A stretch of DNA of 63,929 nt, counting the filler, from Aduncisulcus paluster (taxonomy: Eukaryota), in the NCBI GenBank assembly GCA_024181965.1. It is 9 parts of 9 records of this genome, joined end to end, with 100 filler letters (N's around TTAATTAATTAA, not from the genome) between each part and the next. Parts side by side here need not be neighbours in the genome. Positions count along the whole stretch, not along the records: positions 48,597 to 57,788 come from BQXS01010073.1; 8 more parts are not named here. One strand, given 5' to 3'. The translations under genes and the position numbers were made by a program. Of the stretch, positions 45,987 through 51,386 are shown one piece after another (positions within the stretch are counted from its first letter, which is position 1; each line of letters opens with the position of its first letter). The notes under the pieces are model-generated. The model did no database searches and was not told the DNA's origin. It worked only from the letters and a program-made list of their open reading frames with translations.

Positions 45987-48496
45987 ATGTCAGCAATACA
46001 TCAATATACTCGGACTGGAAGCGATACAATTTCGCTTGAACTACCTCACAATATTGTAGTCGATATGCTTCTAAGAAAAAAGATGTTCAGCGTTGATCCT
46101 ACAAAAGGAACTCGGGGAAGCGACGGTATGTCTGGAATGCGCGGGGGAAATGGAAGAACTCCTATTTTACTTGGAAGAGATGGAACTGACGGTGGCCGTG
46201 GAGGTGATGGTCAATGTGGTGGCCGTGGAGGCGATGCATCTGATCTTTGTGTCACTTTGTCTGGTGAATCTCTTGAGGCAATGGGTGTTGAATTGAATGT
46301 TCACATTGAACTTCCTGTCTNNNNNNNNNNNNNNNNNNNNTTTACTTGGAAGAGATGGAACTGACGGTGGCCGTGGAGGTGATGGTCAATGTGGTGGCCG
46401 TGGAGGCGATGCATCTGATCTTTGTGTCACTTTGTCTGGTGAATCTCTTGAGGCAATGGGTGTTGAATTGAATGTTCACATTGAACTTCCTGTCTCACAC
46501 ATCAATGTTCTTGAAACAGGGGACTCAATCATATGTTTTGATGTCTCAGGTGGAAGAGGAGGAGATGGTGGAAGGGGAGGAAACGGAGGGGATGGAGGAA
46601 GAGGAGGAGACGCAGCCCTGTGTCGTTTTCGAGTTACTGATCCTAAATTTTTTATGCTCTGTGGTGTGGATTTACGTGGTGGAGATGGAGGAACAGGTGG
46701 AGATGGAGGATTAGGTGGATATGGAGGAAGAGGTGGACCTGGAGGAAGAGGTGGACCTTCTGGAGAGAATATATCGGCTGGGAGTCGCGGACCACGGGGA
46801 AGTGATGGTTTACGTGGGCTTAATGGGTGTTGTGGAAGTGATGGCAATGATGGAGATTTTGGACAAGTTGAATACCAGTGGGTTGTTCTCACAACTGGTC
46901 AAGTTATTGAACATTCTACAATGCCGCTCGATTTGATGATATCTTCCTTTAATACCGACACGTTCCATCATGATGGTGTGTATGAGCCAGGAGAACAGCT
47001 CTATATCAGTGACACTGTTTTCTACAATCCTAATCCTGGATTATCGGTGCCAGAAGGTTCTGTTCTCTATCTTGAGCAATACCCTGAGATTTGTTCCAAG
47101 ATCCATAGATTCCACGTTCCTAGAATTAATCCACTGATGTCCTATACCCATCCTCAAATTATGGAGGCCGTTATTGCCAAAGAAGATCCCCTTTCGACTC
47201 TTTTTCATCTACCATTTCCTGAAGAAGGTGCTCTTGAGGAGTCTGTCCTAGAAGTACGCGATATCCTTCACAGATCTTATTGTGTTCAACCAACTGTTTC
47301 TCTTATCAATCGAGTTTTTGCAAACGGATTCCTCAAAAGAATGTTGGATGTGTTTTATCCCGTCTGCATACCATACGTTTCCTTGCCTCCAAAGGTCGTC
47401 CCCAACGACAGCTTCAATATTGTAGCCTTGTTGCTAAATCGGTCATGTCAGGCTTATGGTGGAACTGAGGAAGAATTCGCTGCTGATCTCTCAAAGGGTC
47501 ATATTAGCGTTGATATTATCTCAAGCACAAGAATGGAACATCCAAGGCGAGTTTTCCTCAATGCCAAAGCCTTTGGTAAATTCGATGGGGCAGAATACAC
47601 ACAATGTCTCACAACAGTTGGAGATGATGGTGCTATTGAAGAAGTGGAGGAAGAAGATGATTCCTCTGCGCATGACGAGGAGGTTTCTTCCAGTATTTCC
47701 GAGTGGGACGATGGATTAAATCGATTCAAGCATATGTATCCTCCCAATATCGAAAATATGTTATCCTCTCGGGATCCTCCTTTCTTTATGCAAACTGAAG
47801 AGCGAGGCTTGCTCAGAGCTGAAAAGGACAGGATTGCAAGGTGTCTAACATATGGAATCAGAATGACCCCTTTTCTTTGGAAAGATGTGACCAAAGTGAG
47901 CTCTTTCTTCAGTTTGGCCAAGGATACTCCTTTCTATGAACACACTCCAGTTCAATTCCGTCTCAATTTGAGAGGTCTTTTCATTCAAAAAGTAGAGCAA
48001 ACCATCCAATGTGCCCCCAAATACCAGCATACTGGAAACACCTTGCTCATTTTCAACAGCACCACGAACAAAGCGCAGTTTAGTGCTTGGGGACTTTTTT
48101 TCAACTGTGCCAAGATTGAGCACGATGATGGAAGGATTCAATACTCTGGACATCCTCCTCTTGCTATTGCCCATGGTTACACTGAGGACAACTACCTGGT
48201 TGGGGCAGATTATTTCGATTCACAACTCTATCAAGGATTGAGTGACATCAACAATATTCCTTGTGCTGGAAAGCTTCCACATGAAATCGTGGCACCATGG
48301 GTTGGTAGGTACAAAGGTGGAGTTATTGCCGCGACTGTTGATATTCTTCCTGGTCAATCTAAGATGAGAACTCCATATATCCGTGGTCTTGACCCCATTG
48401 ATCTTGTTGACCATTTCTCTGTCTCAAATATGGTGAACCAAAAAAATCTCCATGGCGATGAAGATGAGAAAGATGAGAAAGATGAAGAAGCTGAAG
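45987..48496 (+). CDS. Protein with Gly-rich GGxGGx repeats followed by a globular domain (DGVYEPGE), 3'-truncated
   Basis: Single frame once the duplicated gap 46321-46340 is collapsed. GGRGGDGG blocks alternate with short hydrophobic beta segments. Confidence 0.75.
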
Positions 48497-48597
48497 NNNN
48501 NNNNNNNNNNNNNNNNNNNNNNNNNNNNNNNNNNNNNNNNTTAATTAATTAANNNNNNNNNNNNNNNNNNNNNNNNNNNNNNNNNNNNNNNNNNNNC

Positions 48598-49389
48598 CCT
48601 GGCAGAGCTGTCATTGCCGGCACTGCTCTCGTGTTAAAGGACGAAGCCGGTGGCCCAGCAAGCGAGAAGACCGAATTCTTCGGTATCATTCCAAAGGGAA
48701 TACGAAGAGGAGAGAACAAAAGAAACGAAAAGCAAGCGAGAAACAGGAAGAAGTTGCTTACCCTTTCACTAAATCGGCTAAATCTACCCCAACTGCGAAC
48801 TCCTAATACTGAGGTTTTAAAAGAACGTCTCAGAAAGGAGTTCGCAGTTTGGGATAGTTTTAGACAATTATCTGAAGCAAAATTCTGGCGTCGTCAGCGT
48901 TTCGGACGTGAATTAATGCTGGAAAAGAAAATAATGAAATACACGTCTGACCACATCAAAATGGCACGGAAAATTGGAGCTAATTTTCTTTTGGCATACG
49001 GAGATGCCGGGGAAGGCTATAAAAAGGCCTTTTCAGCTACAGGAAAAGGACATCCAGCAACACCCGCAGTAAGAAAGGTTCCAAGAATAATGTCACATGT
49101 TGTAAAGAATATGGGTGGGATATTTATCAAAGTTGACGAATATCACACTTCCAAATTATGTCCATATTGTTACAAAAAACTTGGCACGATGAATCCGAAA
49201 ACTCGTTTGAGAAAGTGTCCTGGTTGTCATCATGAAGGCCACCGTGATTCTTTAGCTGCATTAAATATTGCTAATCTTGGTTATTATGAGTTTCTAGGTA
49301 TCCCAAGACCTCCAGAATTTTGTTATTCCCACCAAGATCTTCATCATCGTCGGCCTCCTCCAAGACAAAGACTTTCCTTTAGATTATAA
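48598..49389 (+). CDS. Fanzor1-like (eukaryotic TnpB) RNA-guided endonuclease, C-terminal RuvC/zinc-finger part; 5'-truncated
   Basis: The frame is open from the contig start: (..C) CCT GGC AGA = (D)PGR, RuvC-I. Then LAYGDA, VDEYHTSKLCPYC, CPGC, HRDSLAALNI and C-terminal RPPEF. Confidence 0.88.
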   Translation, partial: PGRAVIAGTALVLKDEAGGPASEKTEFFGIIPKGIRRGENKRNEKQARNRKKLLTLSLNRLNLPQLRTPNTEVLKERLRKEFAVWDSFRQLSEAKFWRRQRFGRELMLEKKIMKYTSDHIKMARKIGANFLLAYGDAGEGYKKAFSATGKGHPATPAVRKVPRIMSHVVKNMGGIFIKVDEYHTSKLCPYCYKKLGTMNPKTRLRKCPGCHHEGHRDSLAALNIANLGYYEFLGIPRPPEFCYSHQDLHHRRPPPRQRLSFRL

Positions 49390-49414
49390 TTCTATTTTAC
49401 CAATTTTACTATTT

Positions 49415-49530
49415 TTACTCACCGCGTGTTTTCACGATGGTGAATTTTGAACATTCTTTTTGCTTGCTGTCGCTTTGCGACGCATCGCAAATTGAATTTG
49501 TTCTGATTCACAAAGGTTGTGTTGGAAGAT
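49415..49530 (+). ncRNA. Candidate Fanzor omegaRNA scaffold/guide and element right end
   Basis: Cluster of inverted repeats starting 30 nt after the stop codon: TCACC/GGTGA + CGTG/CACG, TTTGCGA/TCGCAAA, GTCGC/GCGAC, GTGAAT/ATTCAC + GAACA/TGTTC. Confidence 0.55.
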
Positions 49531-51386
49531 ATATTCTTATAAATACCCATGTTTCACTCTTAATGGTTATTATGTGTTCTTTTCTTGTCTAATAGTCCTT
49601 GGTATTAAGTTAGAACGTCCTGTAACAATTTGTTTACGAATTATGTGATTTCTCTGTATCTATGCAAAATATCAATATAAAACAACATTTAATTGGCTTG
49701 AATTTATCATTTATTATGATTAAAATATATAAGGCGTCGTCACCTGTGAAAGAAAGAAAGAAAGGAATTTTGCTCAAGATTTAGCCAGAAACTAACGGTA
49801 GGGACATTCTATCCAAGAAAGAAGGAGAAGATCAAACAAATAATACATTTTCATGCAAAGAAAATGGATAAAAACAAATACATAATTGCAAAAGGGAATA
49901 TAGATTAAAAATATAGAAAATAGAAAAAGATGATTCCTAATTCCAAAATATTATCACTTGTGACAAGATAATAGAATGGAAATTGAAACCATTGTGTATT
50001 ATTTTACCATCAGATTTTTCGCTAAGACATAAAGAAAAAAAAAGTGGAAAGGGGCATTACATTGATGGTAATAATAAAAAAAATATAAATATATTTATAT
50101 ATATATATAAAATAAATAATAATAAAAGAATAACGAAGAAAAAAAGATACGCGGTAATGAATAAATATAGAAAATAATTAAAAATTATAATATAAATAAT
50201 AAAAATCCAAGTATCTTCGAGCAACAAACACCATATCATATATGTTTCTTTCTTGAAGCTCTGTGAAATCAATTGGAACAGTATTGAAATACAACAAAAT
50301 GCTACAGTGGAATTGCTCAATTCAAAAAAAAAAAAAAAAAATTAAAATAAAATAAAAAAATATAATATATAGTAAAACTAATATTAAAAGGGAAAATACC
50401 AATTATAACAGATAAATACAGTAGATTTAAAAAGATATAGAAGATAAAAAAGAGGTGCAAAATTCAAAATGTTAAAAAAGGCAAAAAATATCACAAAAAC
50501 AAAACAAAATAAAAAGATAGAATAGAATAATAAATAAAGATGTATTCAATATCAATTAGAAAAAAGATAGAAACTTCCAAATCATTATATCAAAACAAAA
50601 GAAAAGGAAGATGGTTTGTGTAAAAAAAAAAATACAGAATAGTACTACAAAACTGTACTATCTATACTGTACTATAGATAAATAATATTACGAAAACATA
50701 TTTTTGGATATTACAAAAACCGAAGAATTTAACGATTTGGTTTTGAAATAATAAAAATAGAAAATAAATACTATTTATAGATATAAAATAATTAGATCAT
50801 CTGCCTACCAAATTTTTTTTTAAAAAAAAAAACTTTAAAACTTGATGAAAATTAATGAAAAAATGATCTTGAAAACAAAAAAATAAGAGAGAAGAGAGAG
50901 AAGAGAAAGAAAGAGGTGAATACAGTTGTGTGTCCGGCGAAACATGTCATAAATATCGTAAAAATAAAAAAAGAAAAACTAATTTTTTGTTCCTAAATAT
51001 TATTATTGAAGAATTTTAACTTACATCTTTCCATCATGTTCTACAATCCAAAAGTTAATAAAAATAAAAATATAATATAATAATAAACCTAGAATCGTTG
51101 TTTGATAATAGTAATAGTTTTTGATGATCGAGTTACAAGAATAACAATAATAAATATATATATAAAATATAATATAAATAAATAATATAAAGAGGAGAAA
51201 AATTATAAATGTTTAAAAATAATGATTTATATTTATATAAATATATATATATATCTACATGTGTGTGCTAAAAAAAAAAAAAAAAAAAGAATTTTAGATC
51301 CCTTCAATGACATTTATAAGTCTTCAATCTTCATCACCCATTACTATTCAATGCACTACCTAAAGAATCAATATATTAGAATGGTA

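Follow-up and report, generated by a model that had tools for sequence, protein, structure and literature searches.

A Fanzor1-carrying, probably non-autonomous MULE transposon in Aduncisulcus paluster with a predicted omegaRNA scaffold at its right end

Results and discussion

A Fanzor1 gene at a contig join

The window that we analyzed is a stretch of 63,929 nt from the Aduncisulcus paluster assembly GCA_024181965.1, in which nine parts are joined end to end by fillers. The visible part of the gene under study lies directly behind one of these joins:

48497..48596, no strand: 100-base spacer (N runs around TTAATTAATTAA) between two contigs; window position 48600 is position 4 of contig C10073
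48598..49389, + strand: 3′ 263 codons of a Fanzor1 open reading frame (ORF), with RuvC-II (DEYHTS), a C4 zinc finger, RuvC-III (HRD) and the stop codon TAA at 49387–49389

Because the ORF starts at the contig join, its 5′ part including the RuvC-I aspartate is cut off, and the DNA upstream of the spacer need not be adjacent to the Fanzor gene. A Pfam search assigned the product to the TnpB-like proteins (PF07282, E = 1e-11), and a profile search returned SpuFz1 (6e-34), PpFz1 (2e-24) and GtFz1 (2e-21) ahead of Fanzor2 (8e-10) and the ISDra2 TnpB (6e-6), thus bearing out a preliminary description of this DNA that had called the ORF a Fanzor. The profile comprised 19 sequences, namely seven DNA references to copies in this genome and 12 of 29 search matches, some from the same genome. 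By these scores, the protein appears to be nearer Fz1 than Fz2 or TnpB. In a supplementary table of Saito et al. 2023, three proteins of Aduncisulcus paluster appear under FZ1, and for one of them the ORF of sister copy L002 is printed (PMC10432273). The likeness to SpuFz1 emerged by profile only, as a PDB search with the single sequence gave no match. An AlphaFold model was weak (pLDDT 48.7) and confident for the RuvC/zinc-finger part only; a fold search with it did not separate Fz1 from Cas12f.

From sister copies in the genome, the full protein measures about 620 aa. Three of them (L002, L003 and L004) keep G[IV]DPG, DEYHTSKLC and HRD intact, with about 182 residues between D and TS. The Fanzor C-terminus has been defined as D-X(125–275)-[TS][TS]-XX-C4 finger-X(5–50)-RD (PMC3627910), a pattern present in L002–L004, while the first D of the window copy falls beyond the contig join.

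Several observations concern Fanzor sequences as such. A hairpin inside the window ORF (48778–48863; 18-bp arms, z −7.4) is retained in close copies, but is probably not selected as a structure, since L008 (82% identical) breaks pairs without compensation. The genome further holds at least two additional Fanzor families, of YRTSKLSYCC type and NRDCFAAQNI type (L116–L120 and L085/L087), whose 3′ regions lack the scaffold described below in the copies examined. In P0010 (L101, L102), a Fanzor fragment is annotated in one frame with downstream text. This text we take to contain integrase-like and SET-like motifs, which suggests another mobile Fanzor host in the genome.

The right end of the element and its predicted fold

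Downstream of the stop codon, the following features were delineated:

49404..49503, + strand: predicted omegaRNA scaffold, 100 nt; 5′ edge from ORF-less copies, 3′ edge at the element end
49404..49418, + strand: U-rich leader TTTTACTATTTTTAC, unpaired in the fold; a similar leader precedes stem-loop 1 in family B
49419..49443, + strand: stem-loop 1 (SL1), TCACC-GCGTG-TTTT-CACG-AT-GGTGA; base helix CACC/GGTG common to family B
49449..49503, + strand: stem-loop 2 (SL2), long bulged hairpin with closing pair G49449–C49503; its 5′ arm pairs with the terminal inverted repeat (TIR)

When the query was extended to 49800, the right end was spanned by 15 other genomic copies. Their identity to the query stopped at 49503 in ten cases, at 49504 in three, and at 49508 and 49499 in one each. 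Six compared copies were 93–100% identical over 49404–49503 and 45–52% identical over the next 100 nt; the segment is thus conserved among copies, as had been anticipated, and sits between the ORF stop and the element end, followed by variable flank. The preliminary description had placed the scaffold end near TTCAC at 49511, but TTCA occurs within the first 10 flank bases of 0/14 other copies. Since the copies lose identity at 49503 and TTCA is copy-specific, we set the element end at ...GAATTTGTTC (GTTC) at 49503. The guide start formerly proposed, 49512, lies coincidentally within one base of 49513, the start under the second-ranked model discussed below. GC content is 38% over 49404–49503 and 45% in the core, so that the supposed GC-richer island stands out against the downstream flank (23.5%), but not against the upstream ORF (42%).

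Folding was far more stable than in shuffled controls (z −5.5 for 49380–49540; z −6.5 for 49404–49503; 0/200 shuffles as stable in both cases). The latter segment ranked top of 311 100-nt tiles in the window, on a grid set so that one tile starts at 49404 and with an approximate dinucleotide-block shuffle. All hairpins listed in the preliminary description are present in the sequence where it had located them. Of its six helices, three are populated in the predicted ensemble (SL1, P = 0.80; GTCGC/GCGAC, P = 0.998; GAACA/TGTTC, P = 0.99), while TTTGCGA/TCGCAAA (P = 0.0), GTGAAT/ATTCAC (P = 0.11) and CACAA/TTGTG (P = 0.17) are not; the last two draw on flanking DNA present in 0/14 other copies. 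When these copies were folded with their own flanks, the base of SL1 reached P ≥ 0.66 in 12/14 and the terminal pair P ≥ 0.72 in 13/14.

The two stems are separated by a linker of 5 nt, and the closing pair of SL2 uses the last base of the element. The layout predicted for family A, to which the window copy belongs, is hence SL1 plus SL2 without a terminal pseudoknot, for which inspection shows no room, as both loops contain nothing but U and cannot pair with the final five bases (UGUUC), which are taken up in SL2. The GCGAC/GTCGC palindrome at the apex of SL2 is part of the TIR and recurs mirrored at the left end, so part of SL2 is explained by DNA symmetry; it probably also serves as a DNA binding site. 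An Rfam scan of 49200–49700 yielded two chance-level matches far under the gathering score and no family, and the SL1 24-mer had 0 matches in viral contigs.

Conservation in ORF-less copies and in a second family

Across 15 family A copies, the nine core pairs of SL1 were constant. In SL2, two changes were one-sided but compatible, three pairs were disrupted in at least one copy, and double changes were absent. Variation spared SL1 and was mostly pair-compatible (A-U to G-U, U-G/C-G). As there were no double changes and the copies are 96% identical, family A provides no proof of covariation.

Eight ORF-less copies, which we call ghosts, have a different body; their match to the window starts exactly at 49404 and the full 100 nt are kept. 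They set the 5′ edge of the scaffold, which may lie a few nt farther upstream, and count as one event because one junction is common to all. SL1 can be lost: L017 has lost its 5′ arm, yet has a perfect target site duplication (TSD), and L172 retains just about 27 nt of the end. In the diverged relic L025, SL1 is kept with a G-C to G-U change, and SL2 is different.

A second Fanzor family (B) has 10 matches in the genome and a protein 40% identical over 206 aa. Its layout consists of the leader TTTTACTATTTTT, an SL1 based on CACC/GGTG with a different, longer top and an SL2 of 4–5 bp, which closes at the family's own boundary TTTTGC in 6/10 copies. The predicted SL1 comprises 9–10 pairs and a bulge in family A, against about 17 pairs in family B. 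The two families were compared by separate folds and inspection, as a joint MAFFT alignment put the stems out of register. In family B, 96% of cells were paired and one double change (A-U to G-C) was found, a number equalled by 49/500 shuffles. The covariation analysis called for in the preliminary description was thus not significant in either family. A TSD search at six family B ends gave one near-match (L138, 8/9).

Three side observations concern the traffic of these scaffolds. In L138 (771–877), an insertion of about 90 nt consists of the family B scaffold only and lies between 9-bp direct repeats with one mismatch. A ghost in L068 (450–1700; G000:C9982) combines the ghost body and a family A left end with an SL1 of family B, behind which part of the left end is repeated in inverted orientation. 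L134, L136 and L139–L141 are family B ghosts with the same body, so one chassis occurs with either scaffold.

Terminal repeats, target site duplications and a transposase partner

The ends of the element show the features of a cut-and-paste transposon:

49469..49503, − strand: right TIR, about 35 bp, matching the left end GGATGAATTTTTTTTGCGACTATGTCGCACTGCGAC of other copies in degenerate form (score 31, 0/5000 shuffles)
49504..49512, + strand: putative right TSD copy of the window element, 9 bp (or 10 bp), TGATTCACA, assigned by analogy with eight exact TSD pairs

A common left end, (G)GATGAATTTTTTTTGCGACTATGTCGCACTGCGAC, occurs 24 times by pattern, 20 times with 0–1 mismatch. The termini are thus G...C (GGATG.../...GTTC), and MULEs typically have G/C termini and TIRs of 20–95 bp (PMC13359780). 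The GCGAC motifs in the right TIR are putative transposase sites. Ten elements have both ends on one contig. Exact TSDs flank six of them (L005, L006, L007, L011, L015 and L017); among the others, L016 has an exact 9-mer beside a shortened end, L010 matches at 8/9, L014 has none and L018 is unclear. Two further exact pairs join across contigs, giving eight exact 9–10-bp pairs in total. The 35-bp TIRs and 9–10-bp TSDs speak against the IS200/IS605-like right end suggested originally. Imperfect or missing TSDs in two to three otherwise young copies (L014, L010, L064/L002) could stem from chance, inter-copy recombination or post-cutting repair. No left junction with the TSD of the window copy was found among the 24 pattern matches and 28 BLAST matches; we predict it to read TGATTCACA immediately 5′ of GGATGAATT.

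There is no room for a transposase inside the Fanzor element, as only about 500 nt separate the left end from the start of the ORF (C448). Two left ends run into contig C815 (L191), where a C-terminal ORF fragment pointing toward that end reads WAGYSRVNMFTAGIRSTQRIE, with a later Cys cluster. Reference MULE DDE domains finish in WALVYGRNTFSADMSSTQRSE, which resembles this stretch (PMC13359780 supplement). The nearest Atlas clusters of the fragment were SWIM/FAR1 (0.90–0.93), with 119–138 shared features, below the guide value of 170; a Pfam search gave no match and a database homologue search returned the fragment itself only. We regard L191 as a probable C-terminal fragment of a MULE transposase that partners the Fanzor elements, and the element itself as probably a non-autonomous MULE carrying Fanzor1 and served by a Mutator transposase. 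With a Cys-rich tail heading for the shared left end, the fragment (L191 in G000:C815; L055, L053) is a candidate autonomous partner.

Another gene, L105 (G000:C9722), is a single 808-aa MULE + SWIM gene without recognisable TIRs, possibly domesticated; it was rejected as the transposase partner because matching ends are absent nearby and it reached only E = 0.33 to the L191 fragment, and its homologue search likewise returned only itself. Palindrome matches in C8/C11990 were discarded as further copies, being a 1.5-kb duplication without Fanzor similarity. The 5′ interior of L003 (1–400), L005 and L052 resembles by eye a repeated host gene fragment that lies outside an element in L018; judged in this way, it may represent a Pack-MULE-like capture. 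Elsewhere in the window (46166–46495), a 155-nt exact duplication flanking a 20-N gap is an assembly overlap artefact; the surrounding gene has a Gly-rich repeat and matches DUF7932 weakly.

Guide register and insertion-site bias

Fanzor guides measure 14–15 nt (PMC10432273 section 7; PMC10711439 section 27). Two registers were considered for the window copy:

49504..49518, + strand: predicted guide, about 15 nt; preferred model, TSD read as guide
49513..49527, + strand: predicted guide, alternative; TSD absorbed into the scaffold

The alignment of genome copies that the preliminary description had advised delivered the element end, the TSDs and the ORF-less copies, but no fixed TAM 5′ of the TSDs: none appeared in 20 left junctions. 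For this comparison, TSD length was set to 9 where the partner is unknown, and L143 was left out as it has no TSD. Among the bases upstream of the TSD, position −4 was never T (p = 0.0009 before correction for 21 positions). [G/T]G preceded the TSD in 14/20 junctions against 5.9 expected, a motif picked post hoc that we do not claim as a TAM. Within the TSD, positions 4 and 5 were T in 15/20 left junctions each (p < 0.0001). The TSDs were also strand-biased relative to the element, with 14 TTG-only and no CAA-only cases in 26 sites (p = 0.0001), 11 versus 0 in the 22 sites that remain without four similar right-only sites, and 6 versus 0 in the eight exact pairs. This bias could be due to unequal TIRs or to selection by the nuclease.

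On balance, we consider it slightly more likely than not that the guide starts at 49504 and takes in the TSD, the TAM 5′ of the TSD being short or loose. This register is preferred because a TAM inside the TSD would also be present at the filled right junction, i.e., would entail self-cleavage. With a guide from 49504, filled junctions should escape cutting, since the left one matches only 9–10 guide bases and the right one is preceded by GTTC.

A serious though somewhat less probable alternative is that the same omegaRNA is read in another register: the 9–10-bp TSD, or its first part, would form a variable scaffold linker, the guide would begin near 49513 or mid-TSD, and a T-rich TAM (TT/TTG) would reside in the TSD. 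Yoon et al. describe short TSDs within Fanzor1 scaffolds, with RNAs extending about 15 nt past the TSD (PMC10711439 section 27), and the Fz1 TAMs tested in the publications consulted are T/A-rich (TTA; TTAA; ATN), in line with the T-rich positions 4–5 and the TTG bias reported above. The published cases, however, as far as the cited section presents them, have short TSDs of fixed sequence, whereas a length of 9 or 10 would shift the guide register here. Moreover, were the TAM wholly within the TSD, the filled right junction would offer both this TAM and a complete match to the guide, and the element would cut beside itself.

More tentatively, the observations may be joined in one reading, in which the TSD acts as guide seed and the TAM is loose. 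The strong insertion bias (T-rich/TTG within the TSD and G-rich immediately upstream, the orientation to the omegaRNA end being always the same) would then record selection for re-cuttable sites or Fanzor-influenced targeting, and the ghost chassis, having swapped scaffolds between two Fanzor families, would be a shared guide-RNA donor for both nucleases. We think this rather unlikely as a whole; if true, the long-TSD problem would have been solved otherwise than by the published rule of absorbing the TSD into the scaffold.

Alternative explanations of the conserved segment

The omegaRNA/Fanzor pair may be a former one that is now inactive, the conservation being due to the copies' young age. 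Fragments make up most of the 33 Fanzor matches in the genome, of which two are near full length, a whole transposase gene was not recovered, and copies that are 93–100% identical have had little time for decay. Against this stand three copies with long open frames and all catalytic motifs, and an SL1 that is invariant while neighbouring positions vary. We therefore rate inactivity as possible but doubtful.

It is improbable that the hairpins act solely as a DNA-level transposon end (palindromic transposase sites, foldback TIR) or as a 3′-UTR element of the Fanzor mRNA, with no guide RNA involved. GCGAC/GTCGC palindromes do occur at both ends, covariation was not significant, and the minus strand of the region also folds well (z −4.9), so that folding alone does not fix the strand. 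Yet SL1 and the 5′ arm of SL2 are without counterpart at the left end, which shows no equivalent fold on the + strand (z −0.8; − strand, z −2.9). Family B retains the layout despite a different end sequence and a short SL2, the ORF-less ghosts retain the entire 100 nt, and such an RNA accompanies every characterised Fz1 examined in the sources cited here (PMC11423790, PMC10432273).

A right end of IS200/IS605 type (HUH, single-strand) at TTCAC 49511, or else an end of Helitron type, has next to no probability left. In its favour one could invoke the subterminal hairpins, the TTCA at 49507–49510 of the window copy only and the existence of Helitron-borne Fanzor1 with 7–19-bp TSDs (PMC3627910). 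It is refuted by the copy alignment, with TTCA in none of 14 other flanks, fixed ends, TIRs, 9–10-bp TSDs and no fixed tetranucleotide 5′ of the insertion.

Proposed function and mechanism

We thus consider it very probable that 49404–49503 represents the omegaRNA scaffold and at the same time the right end of a non-autonomous MULE DNA transposon carrying a Fanzor1 gene; the RNA and the cleavage are predictions. The assignment builds on the element ends, the TIRs, the 9–10-bp TSDs, the Fanzor1 identity, the two-stem fold and the ghosts with the same 100 nt. The central proposal of the preliminary description, by which the right end of a Fanzor element holds an omegaRNA scaffold and the flank provides the guide, is accordingly supported by the conservation boundary, the ghosts and a two-stem layout like that of SpuFz1 and PpFz1.

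In the mechanism that we propose, a transcript would read through the right end into the flank and be shortened to about 115 nt, of which about 15 nt follow the scaffold. Internal U4–5 runs disfavour Pol III, so the RNA is probably processed from a Fanzor or host Pol II transcript. SL1 would dock on the RuvC/TNB surface as in other Fz1s, and SL2 would join the TIR to a 5′ arm that evolved as its pairing partner. As SL2 is built from the TIR, the last 35 nt could double as transposase-binding DNA and RNA stem. A MULE transposase supplied in trans would excise and insert the element, and by means of the flank-derived guide Fanzor would reach the excision site or empty allele. Repair with a filled homologue or sister as template would restore the element, with ghosts contributing more guides.

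Comparison with known systems

The system is no new class. MULE-borne Fanzor1 has been known since 2013 and the protein family was listed as FZ1 in a 2023 supplement; a description of the scaffold was not found in the literature searched. A search for "Aduncisulcus" with "Fanzor" returned 0 papers, and the supplements of PMC10530073 and PMC10711439, as far as they were covered, hold no such entry. Nor did the openly accessible papers and the supplements that were searched contain any omegaRNA/TAM study of a MULE-borne element. The present case offers a Fanzor1 system from a metamonad in which the scaffold ends are exact, 17 right junctions are available from nature, two ORFs look intact and family B has a minimal SL2. 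Its long and variable TSD provides a clean test of how guide, TAM and self-protection can be compatible with a cut-and-paste host; TSDs of up to 12 nt are raised in PMC10711439, which in the parts consulted tested short TSDs only.

With the IS200/IS605 TnpB omegaRNA (ISDra2), the system shares the right-end RNA, the flank-derived guide and a RuvC nuclease of the same superfamily; it differs in being a TIR/TSD cut-and-paste element with no fixed insertion motif and no room for a terminal pseudoknot. IS200/IS605 elements leave no TSD, insert 3′ of a fixed tetra- or pentanucleotide and have a conserved TTCA-type right end. The absence of TIRs and TSDs from this group is also described in PMC3627910. 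The same source reports Helitron-borne Fanzor1 elements (CRe-1,2,3) with 5′ truncation, a variable 7–19-bp TSD downstream of TTTT and a CTRR 3′ end. A Helitron of this type was rejected here, as the left end is fixed in 20 junctions, the TSD is 9–10 bp, no TTTT lies upstream and the element ends in GTTC.

Similar in transposon architecture are the MuDR-type Fanzor1 elements ROr-4, PBl-3 as well as MCi-4 from the Mucorales (additional file 12 of Bao and Jurka 2013, PMC3627910), which have no transposase in the element, MuDR-like TIRs with a degenerate 3′ copy and 9-bp TSDs. The 5′ end of ROr-4 starts GGATAAAT; the present element starts GGATGAAT. It differs from these elements, which were described before omegaRNAs were known, in its metamonad protist lineage and its TIR sequence.

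Similar in RNA layout are two solved Fz1 systems. The RNAs of SpuFz1 and PpFz1 consist of an SL1 on the RuvC/TNB surface, an SL2 that is free to vary and the guide (Xu et al. 2024, PMC11423790 section 5). PpFz1 of Parasitella parasitica (PDB 9CF0) likewise has SL1 and one SL2; its four-pair SL2 resembles the 4–5 bp of family B, whereas SL2 of family A is 55 nt long. SL1 has seven pairs in the three solved Fz1 RNAs (PMC11423790), compared with 9–10 predicted in family A and about 17 in family B. SpuFz1 of Spizellomyces punctatus (Saito et al. 2023, PMC10432273; PDB 8GKH) shows no direct single-sequence similarity to our protein, only the profile match. Its scaffold has 75 nt against 100 nt here, the inverted repeats of Spu-1 are near-perfect and those described here degenerate, and the CA upstream of the left end of Spu-1 is without counterpart in our element, whose TSD is 9–10 bp and variable. 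The two nevertheless agree in the SL1 + SL2 + guide layout (PMC11423790 section 5) and in the plan of a Fanzor1-only element between inverted repeats. In Spu-1, too, the scaffold reaches from the stop codon to the right inverted repeat and includes it, and ORF-less ghost loci keep the scaffold (PMC10432273 section 7).
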